64,000 bases of DNA from positions 895-64,894 of the forward strand of contig JAAOIK010000035.1 in the NCBI GenBank assembly GCA_015163855.1. Reading direction: 5' to 3'. This document shows, piece after piece, positions 2,544 to 61,451 of this stretch (positions are counted from its first letter, which is position 1; each line of letters begins with the position of its first letter). The position numbers and the translations under genes are program-made. The stretch comes from Pseudobdellovibrionaceae bacterium. GTDB taxonomy: Bacteria; Bdellovibrionota; Bdellovibrionia; Bdellovibrionales; UBA1609. Below the pieces are notes generated by a model. The model was not told where the DNA came from. It saw only the letters and a list, made by a program, of their open reading frames with translations, and made no database searches.

Positions 2544-2558
2544 GCGGAGAGCATTTTA

Positions 2559-5500: not shown

Positions 5501-6188
5501 AATGGGGATTTTTAATAAATCGATGTGGTACGAGTATAAAAGAAATTTTTTAAGAGGACTAATCCCTGCATTTAGTTTTTCTGTGGTTTTACAAATGACT
5601 TTTTACCACGAATTTCGCCCCGATATTTTTGTGGGCTATATGTTTTTGTATGGACCCATTGGTTTTGTTTGGCATTATATTCAAAGTAAGTTGTTAATGA
5701 CTACGCAAGCCATTAAGTACGAAAGCATAAAGCCAAAATTATTAAAAAATTTAGAACAAGAACAAAAAATGGCAAATACCGTTACAAAAAAGTGGGCTTT
5801 GGCCATGAAAAAGTATGCCATAAAAGTAAACCCACAATGGTTTTATATTGTGCCTGATTTAATTTTATTTAATGCCTTAACTTTTTTTATGGAGCGATGG
5901 AGTTACGATAAAGGGCCTGTGCAAATGTTAAGTTCGTGGTTGGGAAAAACATTTAATCAGCCCAATTGGGAATTTAGCTTGTACGAATTACAATCTAAGT
6001 TTGTTACCCCTTACTTACCTAAGTGGGCAATGGGTATTGCAGCTAGTTACTTAGCTTACCAGCTATATATAAAGTTAAGAGATAAAAAAGCAGGAAAAAA
6101 CTTAGTAAATAAGATAGTAAAAACCAGCAAAAAAAGCATAAAAGTAAACTCCGTTTTTGCAGGTAGTTGTAAATCGTTATTTCGTTAA
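2559..6188 (+). CDS. Large (1209 aa) signal-peptide-bearing polytopic membrane protein of unknown function
   Basis: N-terminal signal-like segment ILIVQLLLSPVVAVAESD. Hydrophobic helices around residues 470-545 and in the last ~250 aa. Lies 15 nt after the upstream stop, with GGAGAG ahead of the ATG. Ends in AGSCKSLFR. I recognise no family motif. Confidence 0.55.
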   Translation: MKHLLKQSTYFILIVQLLLSPVVAVAESDSVSRFYDSKTDSHLQNQDAVNKSKPLTETGDLFLPELKETDIRLLTTLASGDFLGLKNQTFKTTEESFFRSDPEFGKNLLVMPPSQEQFLKNTKIYIQDGVVHIKEQLDSKKQAFGREHSFFGWHFKGVHVAGDYLFLEVDKTQSKNLPGELFNNFELNKNSNNSVFLIRLTDLLEHMGTKRIIMSVMPLPMPLQKITNVKYQAYDPVSDKNAPYQDKALTGLLSRDFKTSGYKFTDATGGSVVVPSHVPDIYSDMSRLFVKALSASIAPLQPLNSEGLTPVQKNYLKALTSFAKKQNTKHNQVFDTILTGILKKLNPSHLTEVPFSSVLDFVRASYADTITTPKKGSWVGQAYSQLKINPKDLTQAQVDFEQQAKEQVKDYLQAQKNTGGKELKQAGRMMRTLKNPHPNSRDITLALQAKEQIKKARYFSKEKLTQFMKGPLGNVVGVMGITALTLSLYHYTGFGGWADGVGEGFKAQFSSGTEAIKALKVNAVVVIGYLGGLGALLYLGTKLKNKLHKTKQSLVVSLANIAKYKSLFFRHLFSVRGMVNAIFPNYSQSVYRYVVPQKKLGAYDVRFSKSLKQVGKFLNFKSFFVKLLRFNNVKDSGESVVFKTLSKQDKDSSKKIALNKEALVNKRSEELILFEMLPHLAKTLKVSELDLLSAMALKNVSLGSSEFLDWDFKTLSNWAKNSEDQKIKKALIQFKSKKHKIETQYSGLLSKYFLYKNEKRIMKKIKKTKDFQGQRAFLKSLYYLSLKDLRLQGFEDPKRLTIEQAKSIFSDNLEKLKAFVSQESNFDKVAMEQNIIKATRSFQSVYQLLHKEKTSGLKQRQFVAMAKINTDHVTHTLRATSLDYGMERVQSYAEFFKTLQARGISFYDPTSWFTENHTMGLYNQDARHALWNPVAHIISGPLGTANIISRSGPDAVDYGVENTSFFYRNIRQFVNPQRYRQMGIFNKSMWYEYKRNFLRGLIPAFSFSVVLQMTFYHEFRPDIFVGYMFLYGPIGFVWHYIQSKLLMTTQAIKYESIKPKLLKNLEQEQKMANTVTKKWALAMKKYAIKVNPQWFYIVPDLILFNALTFFMERWSYDKGPVQMLSSWLGKTFNQPNWEFSLYELQSKFVTPYLPKWAMGIAASYLAYQLYIKLRDKKAGKNLVNKIVKTSKKSIKVNSVFAGSCKSLFR

Positions 6189-18155: not shown

Positions 18156-19229
18156 TTAAAGCTTAGACCTAAGGGTATTTACTTTTTTAAGACTAGCTAA
18201 AAGCGCTGTATAGCTTTCTGTATAGCCTTCTGTGTTCCCTACATTTTGGTTTAAAAACTCTAAGGCCTCTTTAGCAGACAAAGGACAGTTGCAGTATAGC
18301 AACATATCGCAACCGGCTTTTAAAGCCATTTGAGCTTTTTGGGAGTGGGAGTAAGCCTGCAATGCTTTCATGTCTAAATCGTCAGAAATAACAACGCCTT
18401 TGTAGCCCAACTTTTTTTTTAAAAGCTGTTGAATAAAAAAAGGAGATAAACTAACAGGTAAGTGTTTGTCTATATTTTTAAATAAAATATGACCGGTCAT
18501 AATAAAAGGAACATTTTGTTTTATGGACATAATAAAACTTTGTAACTCGCGATTTTCTAGTAAGGCTAAACTTCTATTTTCCACAGGTAAGTTTTCATGG
18601 CTATCCACTGTGGTGTTGCCGTGACCAGGAAAGTGTTTGGCGCAAGATAATATAGAGGCTTTTTTAAAACCTTTTAAAAGTTCAACCCCTAAAGCATTTA
18701 CTATTTGGTAGTCTTTTAAAGGCTTTGTGCTATTTTTTTCAAGGGATTGTTGAAGGTTAAAGTGATTATAATTTAAAGCTCTGTCTTCAATAAGTGCATT
18801 ATCTTTATTGGTAAAAATATCTAAACAGGGCGACCAGTTTACATTGATGCCCAAAGATTTTAAATACAGTCCCATGCTGTGGGCGTGTTTAAAGGCATTT
18901 TTTTTAGAGGTATTTAAGTCTTCTTTAATGTATAAACTGCCCACCGCAGGCCAAGTTAAAAAGTGTTCTTTGGGAAGGCGATGAACTCTTCCCCCCTCCA
19001 TATCAATGGCGATAAAAAGGGGAAGCTGACTTTGGGTATGTTGTGATAGGGATTGAATGCTTTGGCACAAGGCCTTAAGTTGTGCAGGGTTGGCAAGGTT
19101 TCTTTTAAATAGTGTAATGCCTGCAATATCGTTTTGTATAATCCATTGTTTTTCTTCGCTGGTTAAAGTGTAGCCTTTAATACCAATGTAAAATAAATTT
19201 CCAAAAGGGAAGGGTTTTTTTGTTTTCAT
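18156..19229 (-). CDS. nagZ: Beta-N-acetylhexosaminidase (GH3, NagZ-like)
   Basis: IAIDMEGGRV, KHFPGHG and GVVISDDLDM motifs. Size is typical of NagZ. Confidence 0.85.
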   Translation of the reverse strand: MKTKKPFPFGNLFYIGIKGYTLTSEEKQWIIQNDIAGITLFKRNLANPAQLKALCQSIQSLSQHTQSQLPLFIAIDMEGGRVHRLPKEHFLTWPAVGSLYIKEDLNTSKKNAFKHAHSMGLYLKSLGINVNWSPCLDIFTNKDNALIEDRALNYNHFNLQQSLEKNSTKPLKDYQIVNALGVELLKGFKKASILSCAKHFPGHGNTTVDSHENLPVENRSLALLENRELQSFIMSIKQNVPFIMTGHILFKNIDKHLPVSLSPFFIQQLLKKKLGYKGVVISDDLDMKALQAYSHSQKAQMALKAGCDMLLYCNCPLSAKEALEFLNQNVGNTEGYTESYTALLASLKKVNTLRSKL

Positions 19230-19256
19230 AATTGTTTGGTCATCGATTTTTATAGT

Positions 19257-20078
19257 TTAAATACTGTATTTTTTTTTGGGGTCTAAATATTCTCGTAAAC
19301 CTTCACCTAATAAATTAAAGGCTAATACTAAAGTTAAAATGGCTAGGCCAGGAAATAAACTAATGTAAGGGGCTGTGCTTAACGAAGCCCTTCCTTGATT
19401 TAGCAAAGCTCCCCAAGATGGTGTGTCTAGCGAAACGCCTAAGCCTAAAAAATTTAATCCCGCTTCGGCAATGCTTATTCCTGCAACAGAGCAAGTCATA
19501 TAAACGAGTATGGGGTTAATTAGCGAAGGCCAAATATGAAAAAATAAAATACGAGCCCAATTAGACCCTAAAGCTTTGGCGTTATGAATAAAATCTTTTT
19601 CTTTAAGGGATAAAATTTCTAAGCGCACTAAGCGAGCATAACTAGCCCACGAGCTAAAGCATAAAGCAAAAAGTAAATTTTTAAAGGAGGGGCCTAAAAA
19701 AGCAATTAAAGAAAGAGCAAATAAAAAATTAGGAAAAGCATACACCATGTCTGTAATACGCATGATAATATAATCGGTTTTTCCACCTAGCAAACCAGCA
19801 AGGCTTCCTAGCAAAAGCCCGATGATGGCGCTAATGAAAACTACGGTAACAGAAATCCCTAAGCTTAAGCGAGTTCCCCAAACCACTTTGCTAAAAATAT
19901 CACTACCGTTGCTGTCGGTTCCAAACCAGTGAAGTTGGCTGGGTGGGGAGTATTGCAAATGCAAGTAAATAGCATTGGGGTCTTGCTGTGCTATCCAAGG
20001 GGCAAAGAGGGCTACCACACTAAGTAGTAATAAAAGAAAAGTAGAAAGCGATAAAAAAACTTTAATTTTTATAGTCAT
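19257..20078 (-). CDS. ABC transporter permease, Dpp/Opp C-type
   Basis: Six TM segments. EAA-type loop region NAKALGSNWARILFFHIWPS. Overlaps the upstream permease gene by 4 nt. Confidence 0.85.
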   Translation of the reverse strand: MTIKIKVFLSLSTFLLLLLSVVALFAPWIAQQDPNAIYLHLQYSPPSQLHWFGTDSNGSDIFSKVVWGTRLSLGISVTVVFISAIIGLLLGSLAGLLGGKTDYIIMRITDMVYAFPNFLFALSLIAFLGPSFKNLLFALCFSSWASYARLVRLEILSLKEKDFIHNAKALGSNWARILFFHIWPSLINPILVYMTCSVAGISIAEAGLNFLGLGVSLDTPSWGALLNQGRASLSTAPYISLFPGLAILTLVLAFNLLGEGLREYLDPKKKYSI

Positions 20079-20989
20079 TGTCGGTTAGCCTGCGAATATT
20101 GATGAGCAAAGTCGGTTAGTAAATTAATAAATACATAAATGAGTGCTATTACTAGCACACAAGCTTGAACAATGGGGTAGTCTCTTTGGTTAATGGCATC
20201 TAATAATAATTTTCCGATACCAGGCCAGTCAAAAATGGTTTCTGTAATTACTGTTCCTGTTAAAAGGGCTGCAAATTGCAAACCGATGGTGGTGATCACA
20301 GGCCCTATGGCGTTTTTTAAAGCGTGTTTAAAATAAATTTTAAAATTCGAAAGGCCTTTGGCTTTTGCGGTGCGAATATAATCTTCGGCTAGCGTGTCTA
20401 ATAGCGAGCTTCTACAAACGCGTGTTAAAATCGCACCCAAGGGTAGGGCTAAACTTAATGCGGGTAAAAATAAATGCATTAGTGTGCCCCTTTCTCCTGC
20501 AGGAAATATAGGAAACCGCAAAGCTAGTAGCCAAATTAAAAAAGGCCCTAACAAAAAGCCAGGAGTAGATAAGGTAAATAAAGAAAAGATAGAAAAACTA
20601 TTATCAAAAATAGAGTGTTTTTTTAAAGCCGAAAACACTCCCAAGGGAATAGAAAAAGCAATAGCCATAAACATGGCAGCTAAACTAAGTTCGATGGTAG
20701 CGGGCAAGCTTTCTTTTAAATAACTAGCTACAGAAACTTTATTGTATAACGAGTAGCCAAAATTTCCATGAAGCAAGTCTTTAAAAAAATGTAAGTATTG
20801 TTGAAACAGACTTTGATCTAAGCCCAATGCGTAGTAAAGCTTTTGTTTTTCCATCGCCGAGGCCATGTCACCTAAAATCTGATCCACAGGGTTTCCTGGT
20901 ATAAGGTGAATTAATAAAAAAGAAAAACTAGCTACTCCCCATATAACTAAGGCAATCCCTAACAGAGAAAAAATTTTTTTAATAAACAT
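20075..20989 (-). CDS. ABC transporter permease, Dpp/Opp B-type
   Basis: The N-terminus is typical of DppB/OppB (LIHLIPGNPVDQILG). EAA loop DYIRTAKAKGLS. Confidence 0.85.
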   Translation of the reverse strand: MFIKKIFSLLGIALVIWGVASFSFLLIHLIPGNPVDQILGDMASAMEKQKLYYALGLDQSLFQQYLHFFKDLLHGNFGYSLYNKVSVASYLKESLPATIELSLAAMFMAIAFSIPLGVFSALKKHSIFDNSFSIFSLFTLSTPGFLLGPFLIWLLALRFPIFPAGERGTLMHLFLPALSLALPLGAILTRVCRSSLLDTLAEDYIRTAKAKGLSNFKIYFKHALKNAIGPVITTIGLQFAALLTGTVITETIFDWPGIGKLLLDAINQRDYPIVQACVLVIALIYVFINLLTDFAHQYSQANRQ

Positions 20990-22040: not shown

Positions 22041-24233
22041 ATGAAAAGCTTAAAACCTATCTGTATAAACTTATTGTTAAATAAAAACGGCCAAATGGCG
22101 GTTTTTATTGTGCTTATCTTTCAAGTGCTATTTGTTTTATTTGCCATGGTTATTAACATTGGCCTTATAGTGCACGATAAAATAAATTTACAAAACTCGG
22201 TGGATTTAGCCGCCTATTACGCCGCCCAAAGACAAGCCGAATCTTTAAATACTATTGCTCACCAAAATTACCAAATTCGCCAAGCTTGGAAATTATTATC
22301 TTGGAGGTATTTAGTATTAGGAACTAGTCCGATGACCAACAATACAAAGCCGCCGACATTTCCGGGAAAATCCCCCAATAAACTTATTCACCCTGCCGCA
22401 AGAGAACTTGGACCTACAAATAATTGCTTTAAGGGATTTGTAAACTATTCAGCAAACCCTGGTCCTGCAGGGAAGTGTAAACTAGTGCCTGTTATTTGTA
22501 TGGCCGATATTCATCCATGGGAGATCAAGACAAAAGGCAATAGTGGGAATACCAAAAACCAAGATCAATTTTGTAGAAGTTTAAATTTTCAAGTAAATGC
22601 GTTAGACCTGCCTAGAAGTATTGCAGGGTCTGCGGTTAGTGTTGCTGGTGTGAGAAGTAGTATTGCCCAGTTTAACGCACAATTTGCCGAAAGTTGTAAG
22701 GGAGCAGATTCTTTGCAAATTGTGTATGCAAGTAGCCTTTTAACGGCCTTTGATCATGAACAAAGTAACCGGTTAAAAATTTTATATACAGTGGCTAAAG
22801 ATTTATCTAAAAGCTTTGACATTGATGGTCGCTCTATAAAAGAAGGAGCTTTTAAAGTTTTAACAAAAAATTTATCCTATGCTAATGCTCAGTCCATTAA
22901 CTTTTCTAATTTTAAGTTATATAATTCGGTAAGTAGTAATAATAAGGTTAAGCTTTCTAAATGGCTAGTTCCTATTGTTGTTAACCCCGCCATTATTTTC
23001 GCTAGGCTAAAGGCTCCGCCAGGTCAAGGCTGTTTCAGTGGCGAGCCAACTATTTTAGCTCCTAAGCTATTTTTACCTAAGAATAATAATGTGGGTTTGG
23101 CGGCTTTTCAACTCCATTTCCCTGGCCAATCTTCAGCCATGGTTGCCCAAGTGCAACGATCTATATATAAATCCACGGGAAGAAAACTAGAAAATATTAC
23201 AAAGTTTTTAAATAACCCTGCGGTTAATGACCCTGAGTTTTTAACCGTGGGTGTGGAAAAAAATCCTTGGTACAGGGTGTACGCGGGGGTTAGCGCCACA
23301 ACTAAACCCAGAGAATTATTTTGGTTAGGTAAGCCAGTAACCTTAAAGGCGGTAGCCTTTGCTACACCTTTTGGTGGCAGAGTGGGCCCGTGGTATGGTA
23401 AAACTTGGCGACATAGCGAGCCTTGGTCTGTTACTGATTTAAGTAAGCGCGTGGACCTTTTATTGCCTCCGCGAGACACCTTTAGAGGTAAACAAAGCGA
23501 AACAAAAAGCACGGTTCAAGAATTTGTTCCTAACTTTTCTCTTTTTCCGGGAGATAAAATGGGTTTGCTTTCCTCCAAGGCTTTGGCAGCTGTTTCTGTA
23601 AAAAATGGGGTAAGGTTTAACCTAAGTCATTTATTGCAATCCGCTTTTAATGGTAATATAAAAAACGGATCGTTCGCTTTAAAAGACGAAACTACATTAT
23701 CTAAACTACCAAAAGAGGGTGGAGATAACCAATCGCCTAGAAGTAGAGAGATAGCTGTGCTTAACCCTAATTATTTTGATATTACCTATTATTCGGTTTT
23801 TCCTGATGCTAAAAATTCTTTTATGCAAAGGGTGGTCAAGGCACAAGCTAGTAAGAAGGCTGTTGTTATTAGAGAGGACATGGGAAATTATTTGCCTTCA
23901 AAAAATACCAGTTTAAAAAAAAGAATAGAAGCATTAACTACAAATAATAAGGTAGATACTGAATACGGAAAATTTATCACCAATCCCGAACTCTTATTAA
24001 CGGGCTGGATTCCTAACGGGCCTTATACATACACATTTAATAAAAACGCTTTTCAAAAGTGTACCAAGTGGGGAAAAGCCGAAAAAGCTCCCGTTATGGG
24101 TGCTTGTGCATCGGGAGGACGAGTGGGTTATTCTGTAAAAATTATTTCTAAAGACGCTTTAAATAGTAATAAATTATCACTGGGTGGTCACAGTGGGGCA
24201 GGCTCTTTAAAAAACCCCCCCCTTAATTTTTAA
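22041..24233 (+). CDS. TadG-like (Flp-pilus-assembly TadE/G-like N-terminal domain) large protein
   Basis: The N-terminus NGQMAVFIVLIFQVLFVLFAMVINIGLIVHDKINLQNSVDLAAYYAA matches the Tad_N/TadG pattern (hydrophobic helix followed by LQnaaDaAAlAaa). The rest is unrecognised. Confidence 0.6.
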   Translation: MKSLKPICINLLLNKNGQMAVFIVLIFQVLFVLFAMVINIGLIVHDKINLQNSVDLAAYYAAQRQAESLNTIAHQNYQIRQAWKLLSWRYLVLGTSPMTNNTKPPTFPGKSPNKLIHPAARELGPTNNCFKGFVNYSANPGPAGKCKLVPVICMADIHPWEIKTKGNSGNTKNQDQFCRSLNFQVNALDLPRSIAGSAVSVAGVRSSIAQFNAQFAESCKGADSLQIVYASSLLTAFDHEQSNRLKILYTVAKDLSKSFDIDGRSIKEGAFKVLTKNLSYANAQSINFSNFKLYNSVSSNNKVKLSKWLVPIVVNPAIIFARLKAPPGQGCFSGEPTILAPKLFLPKNNNVGLAAFQLHFPGQSSAMVAQVQRSIYKSTGRKLENITKFLNNPAVNDPEFLTVGVEKNPWYRVYAGVSATTKPRELFWLGKPVTLKAVAFATPFGGRVGPWYGKTWRHSEPWSVTDLSKRVDLLLPPRDTFRGKQSETKSTVQEFVPNFSLFPGDKMGLLSSKALAAVSVKNGVRFNLSHLLQSAFNGNIKNGSFALKDETTLSKLPKEGGDNQSPRSREIAVLNPNYFDITYYSVFPDAKNSFMQRVVKAQASKKAVVIREDMGNYLPSKNTSLKKRIEALTTNNKVDTEYGKFITNPELLLTGWIPNGPYTYTFNKNAFQKCTKWGKAEKAPVMGACASGGRVGYSVKIISKDALNSNKLSLGGHSGAGSLKNPPLNF

Positions 24234-36366: not shown

Positions 36367-36473
36367 AACTTACTATTTTTACAAAATAAGTTCTATATTT
36401 TGAAAGAGTAGCTAAGAGTTGACTTTTTTAAGAGAAATCAGTAAGTTATTTTTTATTGCAAGGGGTGTATAGT

Positions 36474-36692
36474 ATGTTATTAGACCAAATTAATAAAATG
36501 AAATTTGATATTCGTATGGTAGAAAAAAACTTAAAAGACAAAGTAATTACTCCAAAAGAATATACTCAACATTTAAACGATTTAGCAGAAGAGCAGGGGC
36601 AGGACATTCAGTTTTCTAAGTTAACAGAAGACGCCAACGTTTCTAATGACGCTACCGTTTCTAATGACGCTACCACAGAACAGCTAGACTAA
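36474..36692 (+). CDS. Small hypothetical protein
   Basis: SD AAGGGG lies before the ATG at 36474. C-terminal direct repeat VSNDAT x2. Its 3' end overlaps the convergent minus-strand gene by 4 nt. Confidence 0.35.
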   Translation: MLLDQINKMKFDIRMVEKNLKDKVITPKEYTQHLNDLAEEQGQDIQFSKLTEDANVSNDATVSNDATTEQLD

Positions 36693-37363
36693 CTTAGCTC
36701 TCCAACCCAAAAAGACAGTTGGTTATTATCTTGGCTTAAGCTTTTGGCCACCTTTTCTAAGGTGGTATCTTCTAAGTCGAGCTTAAAAATATTAGAACTA
36801 ACATAAGGCCTACTAATTAAATATAATTTATCAGCATCTTGTAGCTGTACTTTATTTACAATAATATTAGCGGTGTTATATAAACCTAAAACCGCTTTGG
36901 GCAAAGGGTCTTGAGAAGAATTAGAGTAATCAAAACTTAAATCATTTTGACTATGTAATTGTATTAAGCCTATGGAAGCTCTGTGCAACAGTAAATGGGG
37001 CTGCCCCAAACTGGCCCAAAATAAATAGTTATTTTTTAAGCAAAGGCTAGTAACCTCTATACCAAATTGAATTTCCTTTTGATTGTAATCAGAAAATATT
37101 TTTGCATTTAAAATTTTTAAACTACTTTTTAATGCATTTTCCTCTAAGGATAAGTTATTTTCATAAGCAAAAGGGGTGGTGGCCTCTGTATCTTCTTGTA
37201 AGAGCTGAAATTCATTAAAAATGTCTTCTGATAAAGAGGTAGGGTCAATGGGTAAGCCCCAGCATCTTATAAAAGTGTAAAACACTAGGTCAGATTCGTA
37301 TTTATTTACAAAGGTTTTGGGGGTTTTAATATTCTTGTTAAAATATAGTTCATTTAAGTGCAT
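36689..37363 (-). CDS. Hypothetical protein, last gene of the tadC/FHA operon (possibly a degenerate PP2C/SpoIIE-like fold)
   Basis: Lies 11 nt downstream of the double-FHA gene. The pattern ASLGQPHLLLHR..GLIQL....D....PLPKAVLG.......V.LQDADKLYLIS loosely resembles the PP2C/SpoIIE core, but I see no metal-binding Asp motifs. Confidence 0.4.
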   Translation of the reverse strand: MHLNELYFNKNIKTPKTFVNKYESDLVFYTFIRCWGLPIDPTSLSEDIFNEFQLLQEDTEATTPFAYENNLSLEENALKSSLKILNAKIFSDYNQKEIQFGIEVTSLCLKNNYLFWASLGQPHLLLHRASIGLIQLHSQNDLSFDYSNSSQDPLPKAVLGLYNTANIIVNKVQLQDADKLYLISRPYVSSNIFKLDLEDTTLEKVAKSLSQDNNQLSFWVGELS

Positions 37364-37374
37364 AAAATTACCAA

Positions 37375-39288
37375 TTATAAACCTTCATACTTTTGTAGCT
37401 TTCTTTTTGCTTTTTCATAGTACTCTTTATTAGGTATACCTTTTTTTATCATTTTTCGCCACATTTTTTTGGCTAATTCTACCGAGCCCACACTTTCTTC
37501 AAAAACAGAGTCTTTGTAAATGTCTTTTAATTGTTGCCGTGATTTTTGTATTACTGTTTCTATCAAGGCAGAAGTTTTTATATTTTCAGGATCTTGCTGT
37601 AATACTTTTTTACAAAAAGAAAATGCTTTTTTGTATTGTTTATCATCAAAAGCCGTTTTGCACTTAAAAAAAGATGAGTTGATAATCATATTAAATCGTT
37701 TTTTTGCTGCTTGTAGATTTTTTTTTGCCTTTGCTTTTAAGTGGCTAACTCCATAATAAGAATTATTTAAAAAACTTTTAAAGGCTTTGATAGAAACTCG
37801 TAATTGATTTTTTTTATATAATTTTAATGCGCTTCGATATTTTCTTAAACCCCTTTGATAGGATTGCTTATTTTTTTTATTAGTAGCCACTATGTTTGCA
37901 GTTTGTATTTTTCTGGTTTCTATTAAGGCGGTTAAGTTTGCAATACCAGGGTGGTTGGGGTTAATTTCAATGGCAGGGTATAGGCAGCGATTAGTTTCTG
38001 TGTCGGATGATTTTTTAGAAGTAAAATTTTGTTCACATTTTTCTATAATAGATAAAATTTTATTGTTAATTCTTTCTTTTTCTTCCACCTGTCGCCTTTT
38101 TTCTTTTTGATCTTGGCTAAGCTGATAGGCTTGTTGGCAATAGTGTTCTAATTCTTTAGAGTTTTTATAAGAGGGCATAGAGGCATGAATTTTTTTTAAA
38201 ATAGCACTGCACAATTGGTATTTTCCACTAGTATAATGAGTTTGTGCCAAGCGTAAATTATCTTCTAGCAGTTGAATTTGCCCGGGCTTTAGTTGGTTGG
38301 TTTTGTTTGTGTGCTTTGCAATAGTGGGTTTATCCTCTAAAGAAAATAAAAAAGCCATTACTAGTATAGCGAAAACTCCAATATACAAGTATTGCTTTTC
38401 TTTGATTGCATATACAACGGCAGATAAGCCAGTGAGATTGTTTTCAAGGGGTAACTCTGCTTCTGTTTTCGTAGAGGCTATTTGAAAGTTTTGATAATTT
38501 TCATTAATAATTTCAAAGCTAATTTTTAATTTCTTAACTTCAATAGTATCACCATGAGCTAGTTCTTGCGATTCATTTTTCTTTAATTTATCCCCATTAA
38601 GTTTAGTTCCGTTTACACTGCCTAAGTCGGTTACCCAATAACCACTACTGTCTTTATTTATTTCTAAATGATAGCGGCTTAACTTTCCATAGTTAATGTT
38701 AGTATTACAGTCGGTTGCTCGGCCAATAATCCATGAATTTTCGGTTAATTTAACACTTTCAGAAAGTTTTTTACCAGGTTTGTAAATATTTAACTGTGCG
38801 GATAAGTTAGATTTAATAATTGCCGTATATTCGGAAGTAACCTCTTCATTGTCTAACTCTAGGGGGCTTTCTTTGTCTTCGGAAGGGGTTTGTGCATCTT
38901 CGGGTTCGTGGCTTTCTTCGCCTTCTTCGCTTTTGTATTCGTCTTCTGACTCTTCGGCCTTTTGTTCTTGATTGGTATCAAAATCTTTCTCTAAGGTAGT
39001 GGTTTGAAATAAAAAAACAAAATCACCAATAGTAAATGCACTTTGGTTTTCTAAAACTTGTTCTTCTATCAATTCATTTTTATAAAGTAGTTCTCCCGAG
39101 CGTGATAATTTTTTTATAACCCACGAGCCGCCTTGATAGTAAAGGCTACTGTGTTTTCTAGATAAAGACTGCCCTCCCTCTAAAGGAATATCGGCCTCTT
39201 GGCTTCTGCCAATAATATACTCTTGTTGCTCGTCGAGTTCTAGCTCGGCATAGTCTTGCGATTTGTATGTAATCAGTAATTGAGCCAT
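37375..39288 (-). CDS. Membrane protein with two FHA domains and a C-terminal TPR-like region
   Basis: FHA 1: YIIGRSQEADIPL...SLSRKHSSL...G. FHA 2: WIIGRATDCNTNI..KLSRYHLEI....GYWVTDLGSVNGTKLNG. An acidic linker, one TM segment (YLYIGVFAILVMAFLF), then helical repeats. Confidence 0.8.
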   Translation of the reverse strand: MAQLLITYKSQDYAELELDEQQEYIIGRSQEADIPLEGGQSLSRKHSSLYYQGGSWVIKKLSRSGELLYKNELIEEQVLENQSAFTIGDFVFLFQTTTLEKDFDTNQEQKAEESEDEYKSEEGEESHEPEDAQTPSEDKESPLELDNEEVTSEYTAIIKSNLSAQLNIYKPGKKLSESVKLTENSWIIGRATDCNTNINYGKLSRYHLEINKDSSGYWVTDLGSVNGTKLNGDKLKKNESQELAHGDTIEVKKLKISFEIINENYQNFQIASTKTEAELPLENNLTGLSAVVYAIKEKQYLYIGVFAILVMAFLFSLEDKPTIAKHTNKTNQLKPGQIQLLEDNLRLAQTHYTSGKYQLCSAILKKIHASMPSYKNSKELEHYCQQAYQLSQDQKEKRRQVEEKERINNKILSIIEKCEQNFTSKKSSDTETNRCLYPAIEINPNHPGIANLTALIETRKIQTANIVATNKKNKQSYQRGLRKYRSALKLYKKNQLRVSIKAFKSFLNNSYYGVSHLKAKAKKNLQAAKKRFNMIINSSFFKCKTAFDDKQYKKAFSFCKKVLQQDPENIKTSALIETVIQKSRQQLKDIYKDSVFEESVGSVELAKKMWRKMIKKGIPNKEYYEKAKRKLQKYEGL

Positions 39289-39291
39289 ATA

Positions 39292-40218
39292 TTAATATTG
39301 TCCTTTTAAGCGCAAGGCACAAAGCTGAAAGTTTACTTTTGCTTCTTTATAGGTGTTGTTATTTTTATTATTTAGCATAATCATTACATTTCTAAAAGCT
39401 GTTTTGCAGGATTTGTTTTGGTGTTGCTTTAAATATTTTTGTCCTAATAGTATATGATATTGCACTAATTCTAAAAATTTACGACGAGCTAAAATAATAT
39501 AACGATTGCAAAGCTTATGGTCGGGAATTAAAGACAGGCAGGCTTGAAAAGAGGAAGAGGCGTTTTGGTATTTACCTTGTCTGTATTCTCTAAAGCCAGA
39601 AAGATAAAAAATTTGTGCTTTTTTGTAAAGTTGATCTCTTACACGATCTTGTTGCTGCTGTTTGTACAGCGTAGTAGTTTGCTCTTGAATACTTGCAATT
39701 TCTTTTTCTATATTTTGAAAACTAGTAAATGCCTTTTTTTTCTTTTCTTTTTTAGCAGGAAGAAGAATAAAAAGCATAAGCATAAGCACGCCAGCAATAA
39801 CAAGAGGTTTTTTATAAGAATTTTTTTTAGCACTAGCACTAGCACTAGCGCTAGCGCTAAAATGATTGTCATTAAATCCTTGCTCTGATGAGTTTGGCTG
39901 GGCTTGTAATAAGTTAGGAATTTCTATTTTAAAAGTGGTTTTTCCTATAATAAAGTTATCCAAATGTTTTAAAGCAGTTTTAGAGTCAATGTTTTTATTG
40001 TTTACCGTAATTTTATTGTTGTTACTGATGTTATAAATAATAATAGAGCCATTAGCATGAGCTTCGATTACGGCGTGTTTTCGGCTACAGCTAGGGTCGA
40101 AATCTAAAGTAACATCACTATCATTGTTGCGGCCCAAACTTAATTTTTGCGTTTTTATATTAAAAAAACTACCTTTTTTTGGTCCGGATATAATGTGTAA
40201 TGTGTATTTTAAATTCAT
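39292..40218 (-). CDS. FHA-domain membrane protein
   Basis: LSLGRNNDSDVTLDFDPSCSRKHAVIEA....IIIYNISNNNKITVNNK. An (SA)5 run, one TM segment (VIAGVLMLMLFILL), and a helical C-terminus. Confidence 0.78.
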   Translation of the reverse strand: MNLKYTLHIISGPKKGSFFNIKTQKLSLGRNNDSDVTLDFDPSCSRKHAVIEAHANGSIIIYNISNNNKITVNNKNIDSKTALKHLDNFIIGKTTFKIEIPNLLQAQPNSSEQGFNDNHFSASASASASAKKNSYKKPLVIAGVLMLMLFILLPAKKEKKKKAFTSFQNIEKEIASIQEQTTTLYKQQQQDRVRDQLYKKAQIFYLSGFREYRQGKYQNASSSFQACLSLIPDHKLCNRYIILARRKFLELVQYHILLGQKYLKQHQNKSCKTAFRNVMIMLNNKNNNTYKEAKVNFQLCALRLKGQY

Positions 40219-40270
40219 AGCTGTATAATTGGTATATTTTTACTTATGCCCATCCTCCCTTTAGTATAAG

Positions 40271-41773
40271 TTATTCTTTTGGAGTAAACACCAATAAAGC
40301 ATAATCTATTGACTTAAGGCCAAAGAGTAATTGCAGTTCAATATTGTAAGTGTAATCTTGCAGCTCTATAAATCCAGAAACATTGCTTTCGTGTTTAGAT
40401 CTTTCTAGTAAATCTTGCAAATTTAATTTTAAGCTTTGGTCGACTAAATTTTCTACTTCTTGATGCAATATACTTTCTTCAAAAAGCTGATCAGCCTGAA
40501 GATTTGTACTAATTACTTTGTGGCTTTTATAATCTAAAATCAAACTAGGGTAGCCAATCAATTGAGTGACCTTGTTAACTTCTTCAAACTTATCATAATG
40601 AGTAGCGGGGGCAGAACTTTCTGCATTTTCTTGCTCTTTAAGCAATACAATGCGATTTAAAATATTATTAATCTGTTCAATACATTTTTGCAAAGCAGAA
40701 AATTGATAAGGGATATTAACAGTACCTTGATTTTTTTCTAAAGAACTTTGTATCTGCACATTTAATTGATTAAAAATGTAACTAATTATTTTAAATAAAA
40801 AGAAAAACAAAATCGAGCCAATTAGCAAACCAATAAATAAAGTTTGGATAAATAAACTTAAAGCTCGTCCGTCACTAAAGCTAAGGCTTCCCATATTATA
40901 AATAATAACCGCATAAGCTAGTGTTTTTAACTCTGCAGATCGACTTAAAAATTGAATGGGTTTGATAGCTATAATAGTGCTAGAATCTAGCTGTTTAAAA
41001 TACTCATTATTTTTATCTATTCCAATAAATAAATTATTAATATTTTCGGGTGGATATTGTCCTTGTTCACTAAGAGGGGCAATAATGCGATTATTTTCTG
41101 CAGAAATAATAAAGGCTTGATCCACCCCAGGTTCTTGCAGGGCTACCGAAGTGCTAATAGCTGCTTTGGGGCCTTTTTGTAAGTACACTTTATTTAAAGT
41201 AGCCAAATGTTTTGCAATCCCTAAGGCTCTATTTTGACTTTCTTTTTGTATGCTCGATTGCAACAAAGTTCCTAAGGGAATATAGGATAAGCTAGTCATA
41301 ATTAAAACAAAACTAATTAATAAAAGGCCAAGTACATAGCGAAAATCTAAAAGCTCGGGTAGTTTGTAAATGCCGGGCAATAAAGCTGTTTCTATTTTGT
41401 TGTTTAAAAACTCTTTAACAGAAGAAAACTTTGTGTTGTTTTCTATTTTTGTTTCTATATTAGAGGGGCTTTGAAAATTAACTATTTTTTCGCCACTAGT
41501 GATAATGGCTTGTAGATCGTGCAAGTTAAGTTGTGCGCCATTTTCTATTGGCGAGTTAGTAATTTTTTTTCCATTAATAAAACTACCATTGCTAGAGTTT
41601 AAATCTTCAATGTAAAGCTGGTTATCTTGTAAGTAAAAACGACAATGCTTTTTAGAAACACTATTGTGGGGGATGTGAATATTACACTGCTTAGAGCGAC
41701 CAACAATGTCTTGATCGTTAATTTGTATATGCTTTCCTTTTAAAGGACCATTTAAAAATTGAATAGACCACAT
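40271..41773 (-). CDS. FHA-domain protein with two TM segments (sensor-like topology)
   Basis: IVGRSKQCNIHIPHNSVSKKHCRFYLQDNQLYIEDLNSSNGSFINGKKI. Two TM helices flank a ~130-aa segment. The ~170-aa C-terminal domain is unrecognised. Confidence 0.78.
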   Translation of the reverse strand: MWSIQFLNGPLKGKHIQINDQDIVGRSKQCNIHIPHNSVSKKHCRFYLQDNQLYIEDLNSSNGSFINGKKITNSPIENGAQLNLHDLQAIITSGEKIVNFQSPSNIETKIENNTKFSSVKEFLNNKIETALLPGIYKLPELLDFRYVLGLLLISFVLIMTSLSYIPLGTLLQSSIQKESQNRALGIAKHLATLNKVYLQKGPKAAISTSVALQEPGVDQAFIISAENNRIIAPLSEQGQYPPENINNLFIGIDKNNEYFKQLDSSTIIAIKPIQFLSRSAELKTLAYAVIIYNMGSLSFSDGRALSLFIQTLFIGLLIGSILFFFLFKIISYIFNQLNVQIQSSLEKNQGTVNIPYQFSALQKCIEQINNILNRIVLLKEQENAESSAPATHYDKFEEVNKVTQLIGYPSLILDYKSHKVISTNLQADQLFEESILHQEVENLVDQSLKLNLQDLLERSKHESNVSGFIELQDYTYNIELQLLFGLKSIDYALLVFTPKE

Positions 41774-41782
41774 AATGTTACT

Positions 41783-42121
41783 TTATTTTTGTAATAAAAG
41801 TTGATCTCCAACTTTTATGTTGTTTAGTTCTCCTGCATTAAACTCCATTACAGAATCAGCCTTAATATAGAAGAAAGTTATCCTCCAAGGTTTTAAGGCT
41901 TTAATAATTTTTATTACTCTTAGTTTTTTATCTACAAACAAAATATCTAAAGTAAACTTCATAAAACAACTATGAACACTTTTGCATTGTGAAATCCAAA
42001 GGCAGTGCCCATGGGCAAGGGGATTGCTAAACATAAGGCCTTTTAATCGTGATTTAAAACTACGGGCCATATGCACTTTTGTGCTTAATACTTTAGAGTT
42101 TTTTTGGTTAATTAGTTTCAT
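41783..42121 (-). CDS. DUF192 (COG1430)-like small protein
   Basis: RLKGLMFSNPL..GHCLWI..C.SVHSCFMKFTLDILFVDKKLRVIKI fits the DUF192 pattern GLMfr...l....gmlF.......fwMknt..pLDiiF.d. Confidence 0.55.
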   Translation of the reverse strand: MKLINQKNSKVLSTKVHMARSFKSRLKGLMFSNPLAHGHCLWISQCKSVHSCFMKFTLDILFVDKKLRVIKIIKALKPWRITFFYIKADSVMEFNAGELNNIKVGDQLLLQK

Positions 42122-42178
42122 ATTTATTAAGCCCTTTTAAAATAAAAAATCATTAATTAATATAATTATAAAATCGGT

Positions 42179-43081
42179 TTATTTTCCATACATAAATTGT
42201 AAAATAACAGGAGCAAAAACCACTAAAAAAATTGCAGGAACAATAAATAAAACCATAGGTAGTAAAATGGCTTGCGAAGCTGTTGCCCCGGCCTTTTCTG
42301 CCCGAGATAGTCGGTTGCCTCTCATTTGTTTAGATTGCTCATTTAAAACTTTGGATATGCTGGCACCAGTTTTGTCTGCATCGATAATCATAGAGCAAAA
42401 GCTGGTAACCTCGGGGATATCTAGTCTATGCATTAAACTTTTTAAGGCTTTTTCTCTAGAGCTACCTAATTTAATATCTTTTAATACAATTTTTAACTCT
42501 TTACATAGTATACGATCGTCTCCTAATTTTTCACTAATTCGTTGTATGGCTCCAATAAAATCTAAGCCCGCTTCGATAGATAAAGATAGTAGATCAATAA
42601 AAAAGGGAAGGTCTTCTATAATAGAAAGGTGGCGTTTTTTTTTACTGTTTTGACAATGAAAGTTTGGAAACAAAGTTCCCAAAAAGCCAATACCTATTAC
42701 TAACGGGGTAGGTATTCCCATTTGCAATGCAAAATTTAATACTAATAAAAATAAAGGAAAGCCCACTCCCCATAAAAATTGTAAGCCAATAAATTCATCA
42801 ACAGTAAGTTCGTTTTCTAAACCAGCTGTAATAATTTGTTTTTCTATTTTTTCTCTATATTTTTTTGCTTTTATTTGTATAGCGTATTTTAAAGTAAAGT
42901 TTTTTACCAAAGGTCTGGAAAAATTAATAATAGGAGACGCAGAGCTTTGTCTTTCATCGCCTAAAGCAAAGCTTAAAGCTTGCATATCTTGATCGGTATG
43001 AAGTAAAGTGTATACAAACAAGTACACGCTAAAAGCAAATAAAATTAGTCCGCTAATTAAAATAAAATAGTGATTTAACAT
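42179..43081 (-). CDS. tadC: Tad/Flp pilus assembly inner-membrane platform protein (TadC/TadB, GspF-like)
   Basis: T2SS-F-type domain: LPFFIDLLSLSIEAGLDFIGAIQRISEKL...LKDIKLGSSREKALKSL......EVTSFCSMIIDADKTGASISKVL..QS. N- and C-terminal TM helices. Confidence 0.8.
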   Translation of the reverse strand: MLNHYFILISGLILFAFSVYLFVYTLLHTDQDMQALSFALGDERQSSASPIINFSRPLVKNFTLKYAIQIKAKKYREKIEKQIITAGLENELTVDEFIGLQFLWGVGFPLFLLVLNFALQMGIPTPLVIGIGFLGTLFPNFHCQNSKKKRHLSIIEDLPFFIDLLSLSIEAGLDFIGAIQRISEKLGDDRILCKELKIVLKDIKLGSSREKALKSLMHRLDIPEVTSFCSMIIDADKTGASISKVLNEQSKQMRGNRLSRAEKAGATASQAILLPMVLFIVPAIFLVVFAPVILQFMYGK

Positions 43082-59770: not shown

Positions 59771-60574
59771 ATGTTAAATAAAAAAAATATGTCTAATAGT
59801 GCAAAAGGTATTTTTTTAGAATTACAACAAACGGGTTGCGAAATGTCTAGCGATCAAAACAAACAAATTGTAGAAGAATTTTTACCATTAGTAAATTTTG
59901 TGGCAAAAAAAATTCACTTTCGATTACCTTCTCATATTGATTTACAAGATTTAATTGCCACGGGAGTGGTGGGGTTAATTGATGCTGTTAGCAAGTATGA
60001 TATTACTAAAGATAATAAATTTAAAACTTATGCAGAATTTCGTATTAGGGGAGCCATTTTAGACGAACTAAGAGTTCAAGACTGGGTACCACGATCTATT
60101 AGAGATAAAGCCAAATTATTAAATAAAGCAATAAACACATTAGAAAAAAAATTAAACAGAGCTCCTCAAGATGATGAGGTTGCTAAAGAAATGGGCATTA
60201 GTAAAGAGGAGTTTTATCAATTATTAAATATAGTAAAGCCAGTAAGGGTGTTATCTTTTGACAACATGGTTTCTTTTAATACTGCCGACTATAAATCCAT
60301 TGTAAAATTAGTAGAAGAGGCTGGTTTGGGCGGGCCTGATCAAAATTATAACTTTAAAAAAATACAAGCAAAAATAGCCGAGGCTATTAGCGAGTTATCT
60401 GACAGACAAAAGCAAATTTTATCTATGTACTATTACAAATCTTTAAATTTAAAAGAAATAGGCAGTATTTTAGAGCTTACAGAAAGTAGAATTTCGCAAC
60501 TACATGCGCAGGCTTTGTTAAAGTTAAAAGCCAAACTGTATAGATACTTTGAAAAACCCTCTATTGCGGCTTAG
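59771..60574 (+). CDS. fliA: RNA polymerase sigma factor, FliA/WhiG (sigma-28) family
   Basis: Region 2: LIATGVVGLIDAVSKYD...FKTYAEFRIRGAILDELR. Region 4: LNLKEIGSILELTESRISQLHAQALLKLK. Size is ~260 aa. No region 1.1. Confidence 0.78.
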   Translation: MLNKKNMSNSAKGIFLELQQTGCEMSSDQNKQIVEEFLPLVNFVAKKIHFRLPSHIDLQDLIATGVVGLIDAVSKYDITKDNKFKTYAEFRIRGAILDELRVQDWVPRSIRDKAKLLNKAINTLEKKLNRAPQDDEVAKEMGISKEEFYQLLNIVKPVRVLSFDNMVSFNTADYKSIVKLVEEAGLGGPDQNYNFKKIQAKIAEAISELSDRQKQILSMYYYKSLNLKEIGSILELTESRISQLHAQALLKLKAKLYRYFEKPSIAA

Positions 60575-60575
60575 T

Positions 60576-61451
60576 TTATTTTAAATACAGTAAAGTACTT
60601 TTAATTTTTTGAAGTAATCGTGTTTCCATTTGCCGTACGGCCTCTTTGCTTGTTCCGTAATGCTCTCCAATAGCTTTTAAAGTATGAGGGCTTGAAGATA
60701 AGGTTCGGTTTTTTAATATATACAATTCTTTTGGGTTAAGCTGATGCTTTAATTCTTGCAATTTTTGTTTTAATTTTTCTGTAATTTCTTTTTTTTCTAA
60801 TAAACTCTCTGGTGTTTCGTAAGTTATGGCTTTGGTTTGTGGTACGGATTGGTCAAGGTGGTCGTCTTTGCTAGATGTATCTAAACTAATATCTTTACTA
60901 GTTAATCGCTGTTGCATAGTTATAATTTCTTTTTCTGTAACATTTAAAGATTGAGCTAGCTGTGGAAAGGGAGTTTGCAGGCTTCCTAATTTTTTTAATT
61001 CTTTTTGTAAGGCATAAAAAATCTTTTTTTGTTGATTGGTGGTTCCAATCTTAACCATAGAATGTTGTTTCATAAGGTACTCTAAAATATAACCTCTAAT
61101 CCACCACACAGCATAGGTAATAAGGCGTATATTTTTATAGGGATTAAATTCTTGTACAGCAGTCATTAGCCCCACATTACCTTCTTGAATTAATTCTAAT
61201 AGGCGGTTGCCAAACTTGGCATATTCCGAGGCCACTTTAATTACAAAGCGTAAATTAGATTGTACTAAAATATGAGCATATTTAGGATCTTTGGTTTCAT
61301 AAAATTTAGTAGCAATTTCTGTTTCTTGCTTACGATCTAAAACAGGGTATTGGCTAACCTCTTTCATATATTGAATAAGGGTGGCCTGTTCGCTAGATTG
61401 CGGTTTTATTGGGAGGTTTAACGAAGTTAGATTTTTGTTAGTTTTTCCCAT
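60576..61451 (-). CDS. rpoH: RNA polymerase sigma factor, RpoH (sigma-32)-like
   Basis: LVQSNLRFVIKVASEY...LIQEGNVGLMTAVQEFNP...TYAVWWIRGYILEY. RpoH-box-like GTTNQQKKIFYALQKELKK. Confidence 0.72.
   Translation of the reverse strand: MGKTNKNLTSLNLPIKPQSSEQATLIQYMKEVSQYPVLDRKQETEIATKFYETKDPKYAHILVQSNLRFVIKVASEYAKFGNRLLELIQEGNVGLMTAVQEFNPYKNIRLITYAVWWIRGYILEYLMKQHSMVKIGTTNQQKKIFYALQKELKKLGSLQTPFPQLAQSLNVTEKEIITMQQRLTSKDISLDTSSKDDHLDQSVPQTKAITYETPESLLEKKEITEKLKQKLQELKHQLNPKELYILKNRTLSSSPHTLKAIGEHYGTSKEAVRQMETRLLQKIKSTLLYLK

Follow-up and report, generated by a model that had tools for sequence, protein, structure and literature searches.

The Tad (type IVc) pilus machine of Bdellovibrio bacteriovorus HD100 is complete but genetically dispersed. 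Its tadC gene lies apart from tadB, beside TPR/FHA genes, tadG forms a lone locus, and several canonical accessory Tad proteins, e.g. TadV, are absent (10.64898/2026.07.08.737194). The single tadC is needed along with tadB, tadZA and rcpA, and deletion of the core tad genes was not achievable. TadC-mCherry and RomR were found together at the invasive pole, TadC and the secretin RcpA co-localise, and cells depleted of Tad made only transient contacts with prey, which were followed neither by rounding nor by invasion (10.64898/2026.07.08.737194). Here we describe a six-gene operon headed by a tadC gene in a 64,000-nucleotide stretch of contig JAAOIK010000035.1 (assembly GCA_015163855.1, Pseudobdellovibrionaceae bacterium; hereafter the window), where it occupies positions 36689-43081 of the minus strand.

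In HD100, the genes Bd0470-Bd0475 form an operon that is expressed in the attack phase and required for predation. Transposon sequencing (Tn-seq) gave predation fitness values of 0.002-0.033 for all six of them, the threshold of the table being <0.1 (Duncan et al.). The annotations given there are TadC for Bd0470, an uncharacterised conserved protein for Bd0471, FHA proteins for Bd0472, Bd0473 and Bd0474, and, for Bd0475, a hypothetical protein to which Phyre gave '91% serine phosphatase'; tadC is stated to share an operon with Bd0474. A Bd0470 insertion mutant did not attach to prey, and a Bd0474 mutant attached and neither killed nor rounded it; both mutants were complemented (Duncan et al.). 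The binding of Bd0474 to Bd0075, a protein composed of a GYF-like domain, a transmembrane (TM) segment and TPRs, was validated by two-hybrid (PMC12034629, 2025). The same work describes the six genes as one operon and predicts a Bd0475-Bd0473 pair (interface predicted template-modelling score, ipTM, 0.604).

Bd0470 is also the reciprocal best hit of Myxococcus KilH and of Caulobacter CC_2940 (Seef et al. 2021, PMC8460266). In Myxococcus, kilH is preceded by MXAN_4649 (FHA, PrgH-like) and MXAN_4648 (FHA and TPR); KilD likewise combines FHA with TPR, and the ATPase KilF has an FHA domain (PMC8460266). The main text of a 2024 preprint on a cell-polarity G-protein (10.1101/2024.10.31.621274) mentions neither FHA nor Tad.

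Results

Gene order and identity of the operon

A sequence-only reading of the window had singled out this block as a candidate novel module built around a lone TadC. The coordinates, gene order and intergenic gaps that it gave (57, 9, 52, 3 and 11 nt) proved exact on recheck. From the first gene to the last, the block comprises:

tadC, 42179-43081, minus strand: 300 residues, one T2SSF domain (PF00482, 61.5 bits, E 1e-16)
DUF192 (COG1430) gene, 41783-42121, minus strand: 112 residues, PF02643 (64.7 bits, E 9e-18)
FHA sensor-like gene, 40271-41773, minus strand: 500 residues, FHA (67.7 bits)
FHA-TM-TPR gene, 39292-40218, minus strand: 308 residues, FHA (46.9 bits) and TPR_2 (E 6e-5)
Double-FHA gene, 37375-39288, minus strand: 637 residues, FHA in two stretches (94.1 bits) and a weak TPR match
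PP2C-derived gene, 36689-37363, minus strand: 224 residues, no Pfam family by itself

The T2SSF, DUF192 and FHA calls were all above the Pfam gathering scores (25.2 for T2SSF; 20.7 for FHA, PF00498), and the FHA calls, on which the earlier proposal depended, thus stand in all three proteins. A hydropathy scan agreed with the number of TM segments first proposed for the FHA proteins (two in the 500-residue protein, one each in the 308- and 637-residue proteins) and detected none in the DUF192 and 224-residue proteins.

Because gene order, domain content and, in the close relatives, flanking synteny match those of Bd0470-Bd0475, these comparisons strongly support the identification of the block as the tadC operon of Bdellovibrionota, i.e. 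as a new example of an operon already known, not as a new system. In both cases TadC is followed by a small conserved protein, two FHA proteins, a double-FHA protein with an extracytoplasmic TPR domain, and a phosphatase-like protein. Close relatives of the window share the neighbourhood of DivIVA, proC, yggS and maf; locus L002, for instance, carries DivIVA-proC-yggS-maf-tadC, and DivIVA of HD100 is Bd0464. Two loci labelled 'Bdellovibrio sp.' (L011 and L026) match the TadC of the window with E values of 1e-103 to 1e-113. The claim of novelty had to be dropped: Bd0470-Bd0475 had been described as an operon, Tn-seq had revealed that predation requires it, and part of it had been dissected. The window differs in that it comes from an uncultured, low-GC (~33%) Bdellovibrionaceae metagenome-assembled genome (MAG), with ~27-35% protein identity to the Bdellovibrio-type loci.

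Conservation across Bdellovibrionota

Locus contexts were taken for distant homologs and from one genome per species, and the six window proteins were then used to search them. The 500-residue protein gave ~60 full-length homologs (23-84% identity) and has an identical counterpart (100%) in a 'Bdellovibrionaceae bacterium' MAG; for the exact 300-residue TadC protein, no identical entry is on record. The order TadC-DUF192-FHA-500-FHA-308-FHA-637 was the same in all loci fetched, with a TadC ortholog (E 1e-48 to 1e-113) as the first gene of the block in every one of them. It recurs in at least 16 independent loci, at protein identities down to ~20%, which led us to reject a chance juxtaposition of the six genes.

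In the close group (L001, L002, L004-L011 and L026, labelled Bdellovibrionales, Bdellovibrio sp. or Pseudobdellovibrionaceae), the block has divergent maf-yggS-proC neighbours in common. In the deep lineages (L013, Oligoflexia; L023, Bacteriovoracaceae; L012, labelled Sulfitobacter; L069, L084 and L085, Bdellovibrionota), the block is intact and the flanking genes are not conserved. A homolog of the 224-residue protein comes next in L001, L002, L004, L005, L007, L009, L012, L013 and L023. The sequences of L008, L010, L011 and L026 stop short of this position, and no such homolog was found in L006, where the next open reading frame (ORF), an HD-domain gene, has the opposite orientation. Conservation of the gene order in Bdellovibrionota, Oligoflexia included, had been proposed as a check on the block, and this result clearly favours the original view that a TadC-type platform protein and membrane FHA proteins belong to a conserved unit. 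Judged from these loci, the tadC-FHA block is of ancient origin and has stayed unchanged throughout the phylum.

L012 (JBLHVN010000002.1) is a 1.27-Mb contig of a MAG labelled Sulfitobacter sp., and it holds the full Bdellovibrionota module. Upstream of it are a Glyco_hydro_3 gene and two BPD_transp_1 genes, as the window has at 18156-20989. The Sulfitobacter name probably goes back to an error of binning or labelling.

TadC and the dispersed Tad machine

The T2SSF domain of the 300-residue protein is a single stretch (residues 161-289), and the hydropathy scan gave three to four hydrophobic or TM segments. We infer from this that the protein is a TadC/CpaH/KilH-type inner-membrane platform subunit of a Tad pilus machine, orthologous to Bd0470 and KilH; its assignment as TadC rather than TadB follows the literature on Bd0470, carried over by synteny. 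A sequence search of the PDB with TadC gave no match.

Pfam scans and a regular expression for the Flp motif did not find flp, tadV, rcpA, tadZ, tadA or tadB in the 64-kb window, nor did the Pfam scans find a protein kinase there. On both points this agrees with the sequence-only reading, the exception being one lone gene:

TadE/G-like gene, 22041-24233, plus strand: 730 residues, PF13400 at residues 17-64 (E 2e-8)

This gene lies far from other tad genes, a position that parallels the isolated tadG locus of HD100, and it probably encodes a protein of the same dispersed machine (a TadG-type minor pilin or tip protein) outside the operon.

We considered the possibility that TadC and the FHA proteins form a platform of their own, within a separate secretion or contact apparatus that has no need of the main tad locus. 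Such a device would fit the self-contained and very stable character of the block, and in no locus were tadB, tadA, rcpA or flp found within 10 kb of it. Yet the block encodes no ATPase, secretin or pilin, the tadC gene of HD100 is the only one of that genome and is needed together with tadB, tadZA and rcpA, TadC co-localises with RcpA, and KilH, the ortholog of Bd0470, works with KilG. Such an independent device is therefore highly improbable. Since the Tad repertoire of these predators is dispersed, the 'lone' TadC is no longer a puzzle: with a complete Tad machine in HD100 and TadC beside the secretin at the invasive pole, the idea of TadC as the core of a separate module is not supported.

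The parallel with the Kil system of Myxococcus xanthus, a Tad-like system for contact-dependent killing, was drawn in the earlier reading and was borne out by MXAN_4648 and MXAN_4649, the FHA genes that adjoin kilH, and by the orthology of Bd0470 and KilH. As in Kil cluster 2, a KilH-type platform gene stands beside FHA and FHA-TPR genes, the tad genes are spread over several loci, and the function is predatory. In contrast to the operon, kilH is found beside kilG (tadB), kilB and pilin genes, and neither a DUF192 nor a PP2C gene is listed there. Furthermore, KilD is described as cytoplasmic, and Kil assembles along the cell body, where prey is contacted, and not at a pre-set pole.

The PP2C-derived sixth gene

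A homolog search with the 224-residue protein returned only relatives at ≥71% identity, and the distant orthologs were taken by position from the loci. Those of L012, L013 and L023 keep the motifs I-N-E-D, F-D-G-F-G-G, T-D-G-V and L-D-N-Q and match the Pfam models PP2C_2 (PF13672, 8e-8), SpoIIE and PP2C. When compared with the PDB, a profile of all orthologs matched PP2C phosphatases (tPphA, 2J82, and others) over nearly its full length (E 4e-7). With a profile of the window-type subgroup alone, the E value was 0.03 and all five matches were PP2C, and hhalign aligned the degenerate to the canonical subgroup with 97.5% probability (E 6e-12). These profile comparisons identify the 224-residue protein as a member of the PP2C family and the counterpart of Bd0475.

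In the window-type proteins, the Asp of the DGxGG motif is lost (R-C-W-G-L in the window, T-P-W-G in most others), and the Asp of the (S/T)DG motif is replaced by Arg185, which is invariant in the subgroup (I-S-R-P). Because both of these metal-binding Asp residues are replaced, the window protein is a predicted pseudophosphatase, descended from an active enzyme. For the sixth gene of L069 and L084, a relation to PP2C was not detectable (E near 1).

In L012 (15647-17017), L013 (15833-17461) and L023 (6707-7915), the canonical PP2C gene is accompanied by a seventh co-directional gene, which encodes a receiver-domain protein of 402-542 residues, its C-terminal part unassigned, and is not present in the window or in Bdellovibrionaceae-type loci. 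In the most divergent lineage, L069 (14855-16068) and L084 (14918-16167), two small genes (~190 and 210-226 residues) of no detectable family come after the double-FHA gene; the first has a 'D-x-(D/E)-A-T-R-I' motif resembling the D..AT motif of the PP2C-like family, a likeness that is not statistically significant.

The three FHA proteins

All four FHA domains had been credited with the full G-R...S-(R/K)-H...N-G signature. This holds for two of them, the FHA domain of the 500-residue protein, with invariant G25, R26, S40, K41, H43, S60, N62 and G63 among 55 homologs, and FHA2 of the 637-residue protein, whose canonical pocket (G189, R190, H207, N226) is invariant in the alignment. It does not hold for the FHA domain of the 308-residue protein, which keeps Arg, Ser, His and Asn and has N-K in place of N-G, with the preceding Ser missing, nor for FHA1 of the 637-residue protein, which has S-G for N-G, i.e. 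a Ser at the Asn position.

An AlphaFold2 model of the 500-residue protein, built from 55 sequences with a predicted local distance difference test (pLDDT) score of 80, shows the following succession:

Residues 1-95: FHA domain, followed by a disordered linker (99-116) and TM1 (147-165)
Residues ~200-295: alpha/beta domain between the TM segments, predicted to be extracytoplasmic
Residues 312-330: TM2, running into a helix of ~45 residues
Residues 396-498: PAS-like alpha/beta domain, cytoplasmic, where the model ends

The top Foldseek match of this model was the full-length WalK model 9a5d_A (E 4e-11, 392 columns); the others were all FHA domains, including that of Bdellovibrio DgcB. PAS (PF00989) is on record for two of the homologs. 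The protein shares with WalK-type kinases the order of TM segment, extracytoplasmic PAS-like domain, TM segment, signalling helix and cytoplasmic PAS-like domain. It differs from WalK in having an N-terminal FHA domain, and neither DHp (HisKA) nor HATPase_c was found in it, either by Pfam or in the AlphaFold2 model. In the light of this model, we take the protein, the counterpart of Bd0472, to be a receptor with a WalK-like input module but no kinase. Its output must be by protein binding, as it has no DHp or ATP-binding domain.

The two other FHA proteins have one TM segment each:

308-residue protein (counterpart of Bd0473): cytoplasmic FHA domain, TM segment 137-155, C-terminal TPR-like domain with two Cys pairs
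637-residue protein (counterpart of Bd0474): FHA1 1-96, FHA2 162-262, TM segment 299-317, helical C-terminal domain 335-637

In the 308-residue protein, Cys227/Cys237 and Cys271/Cys300 are each kept or lost jointly among 15 orthologs, and six Cys residues (C360, C384, C418, C435, C543 and C559) are invariant in the C-terminal domain of the 637-residue protein, for which the homolog search gave nine usable sequences. The pairwise loss is as expected for disulfides, and the conserved Cys residues suggest that the C-terminal helical/TPR domains of both proteins are periplasmic. For the 637-residue protein, this agrees with the topology proposed for Bd0474, whose two cytoplasmic FHA domains and extracytoplasmic TPR domain match its architecture (PMC12034629). 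The AlphaFold2 model of its C-terminal domain was all-helical (pLDDT >90), and Foldseek found FHA domains only for the model as a whole and nothing for the helical domain.

These architectures bear on the possibility that the FHA proteins are not regulators but obligatory parts of the Tad basal body. They would then surround TadB-TadC with a ring or alignment complex in the inner membrane, as PrgH/YscD do in injectisomes or PilMNOP in type IVa pili, and would reach the secretin by their periplasmic TPRs. The Yop-YscD_cpl model (PF16697) was above its cut-off on all three proteins, two of which are bitopic with the N-terminus inside, and YscD/PrgH of the type III secretion system (T3SS) likewise have one TM segment after a cytoplasmic FHA-fold domain. 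MXAN_4649, beside kilH, is annotated as PrgH-like. In HD100, predation depends on the three FHA genes as strictly as on tadC, and the Tad-depletion phenotype resembles that of Bd0474::tn (attachment without killing or rounding); moreover, several canonical accessory Tad proteins, such as TadV, are missing from Bdellovibrio. However, PF16697 is itself an FHA-fold model, so that its matches add nothing to the FHA call, and T3SS genes are absent. Ring-building alpha/beta domains were not seen in the models, the 637-residue C-terminus being all-helical, that of the 308-residue protein TPR, and the 500-residue protein having two TM segments and PAS-like domains; on this account the initial analogy with a YscD/PrgH-like ring is not supported. 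In addition, the receptor architecture of the 500-residue protein, the PP2C gene and the invariant phosphothreonine (pThr)-pocket residues indicate signalling. We consider such a structural scaffold, though the main alternative, unlikely as the explanation of the operon; scaffold and regulator roles could coexist.

The suggested likeness to the TagH/Fha regulators of the type VI secretion system (T6SS) did not withstand scoring either, as the matches to the TagH model (TIGR03354; 68.6 and 30.5 bits) were below the cut-off of 120.25.

Another explanation centres on gliding. Here, the double-FHA protein and Bd0075 would be an analogue of the Myxococcus focal-adhesion proteins GltG (FHA) and GltJ (GYF), and the operon, instead of being part of the Tad machine, would serve chiefly to bring motility arrest or envelope contacts into step with Tad activity. 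Bd0474 does bind Bd0075, the N-terminus of which is GYF-like (PMC12034629), and the FHA proteins of the kil clusters have been proposed in the literature to couple prey contact to motility arrest. The GltG model (NF033760) gave weak matches to the 308-residue protein (E 2e-8) and the 637-residue protein (E 4e-7), but their scores of 28.9 and 33 bits compare with a cut-off of 650 and come essentially from the FHA region only. Furthermore, the strict co-transcription with tadC throughout the phylum argues for a direct role in Tad. A mainly gliding-related function thus appears improbable.

The DUF192 protein

The DUF192 protein is always encoded by the second gene, the stop of which often overlaps the next gene, by 14 nt. 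No signal peptide was found in it or in any of the orthologs examined, whose N-termini are hydrophilic. Its counterpart is Bd0471, and it is probably cytoplasmic, as it has neither a signal peptide nor a TM segment, whereas Bd0471 is annotated as secreted. A PDB sequence search with this protein gave no match, and a literature search found nothing linking DUF192 with TadC and no functional study of DUF192 alone.

Surroundings of the operon

The start of tadC (minus strand, 43081) is separated by 1 base from that of maf (plus strand, 43083), and this divergent gap is near zero in relatives as well: L005 has 0 nt and L001 30 nt between the two genes, which overlap by 1 nt in L011. Each promoter must therefore sit within the coding sequence of the neighbouring gene. 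The best sigma-70-like match for the operon (11/12) is ~530 nt upstream, within maf; a promoter and terminator scan of the operon did not differ from shuffles, being uninformative in AT-rich DNA. Past the operon, a 322-nt gap contains a small convergent ORF (36456-36692, plus strand, up to 78 residues), which overlaps the stop of the 224-residue gene by 4 nt and has a short internal repeat (NDATVSNDAT).

The remainder of the window consists of core chromosomal genes (dcw cluster, ribosomal protein operons, secY, rpoA). At 120-6188 (plus strand), an 807-residue protein, in which an M41 peptidase domain is joined by atypical AAA matches (AAA_2, Torsin), is followed by a 1209-residue ORF of no Pfam family. 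Two convergent sigma-70-family genes, of 267 (plus strand) and 291 residues (minus strand), lie downstream of the rpoA region at 59771-61451. The six operon proteins had zero matches in PADLOC, and a reading of the block as a defence system was rejected on this ground.

Discussion

FHA domains, which read pThr, and PP2C-type phosphatases are combined in known control modules of envelope machines, namely PpkA-PppA-Fha1 of the P. aeruginosa T6SS and FhaA-FhaB-PstP-PknA/B of mycobacteria. The operon likewise encodes FHA proteins and a PP2C-family protein beside a part of a membrane machine, and canonical pThr-pocket residues are likewise present. It differs from these modules in that it comprises no kinase, its PP2C is degenerate, and its FHA proteins are membrane-bound with large extracytoplasmic domains. 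Control by Ser/Thr phosphorylation, as put forward in the sequence-only reading, is plausible, and it has become more so because the sixth gene derives from a PP2C.

We regard a pThr-dependent sensing and adaptor complex attached to the Tad platform as the most likely function of the operon products, and as a reasonably probable one. TadC would be the second inner-membrane platform subunit of a complete Tad machine, the flp, rcpA, tadZA, tadB and tadG genes of which would lie elsewhere on the chromosome, and this machine would act at the invasive pole in lasting prey attachment, prey remodelling and entry. The DUF192 protein, the three inner-membrane FHA proteins and the PP2C-derived protein, all co-transcribed with TadC, would be its accessory proteins, the FHA proteins assembling at the TadB-TadC platform. 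Among these, the 500-residue protein would serve as a sensor-kinase-like receptor without a kinase, with extracytoplasmic and cytoplasmic PAS-like domains. The 308- and 637-residue proteins would have their disulfide-bonded helical/TPR domains on the periplasmic side, and it is there that the double-FHA protein would bind the GYF/TPR protein Bd0075. On the cytoplasmic side, the FHA domains would dock on threonines phosphorylated by a kinase encoded elsewhere. The pseudo-PP2C would be a non-catalytic partner of the 308-residue FHA protein, and the active PP2C of the deep lineages would be an eraser. The whole set may thus couple envelope or prey-contact cues to the assembly or firing of Tad; its reliance on phosphorylation, the proteins that it targets and the way in which the signal runs are the inferred parts of this scheme.

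Several findings weigh against a pThr-dependent adaptor complex. In none of the loci examined was a Ser/Thr kinase found within 10 kb of the module, the Asn/Gly position is altered in two of the four FHA domains, and the lineage of the window has a phosphatase predicted to be inactive. Taken together, the two deviant FHA domains and the inactive phosphatase may reflect a drift to phospho-independent binding. The WalK match has TM-scores of 0.20-0.23, which support the domain order and not a rigid fold. Orthology with the HD100 genes was based on architecture, gene order, synteny and the 'Bdellovibrio sp.' loci rather than on direct alignment with HD100, and the role of the DUF192 protein is left unexplained by the adaptor model.

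The operon, its need for predation and one protein interaction were already published, and what the window by itself has revealed is modest. Our analysis adds the PP2C-derived pseudophosphatase, the receptor-like FHA protein, the predicted disulfide-bonded periplasmic TPR domains and the phylum-wide gene order. The operon bears on the question of how Bdellovibrio converts a reversible collision into a committed invasion, and the link of the Tad machine to signalling genes near tadC is named as future work by the authors of the HD100 study (10.64898/2026.07.08.737194).

A more speculative proposal, which we put forward tentatively and hold to be rather doubtful as a whole, is that the operon is the missing signalling link of the predatory Tad/Kil machines, a transmembrane receptor complex without a kinase that would connect prey contact to invasion. 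The WalK-like sensor with an FHA output would detect the prey envelope, the two other FHA proteins would bridge to the secretin side and to Bd0075 by their disulfide-bonded periplasmic TPR domains, and a partner switch by the pseudophosphatase would lock or release an FHA domain and so license the firing of TadB-TadC. If this is true, the PP2C would be an active enzyme in Oligoflexia and Bacteriovoracaceae, with a receiver-domain gene after its own, and dead in Bdellovibrionaceae, and its stepwise loss of catalysis would mean that obligate periplasmic predators have moved away from reversible phosphorylation and towards constitutive control by binding.

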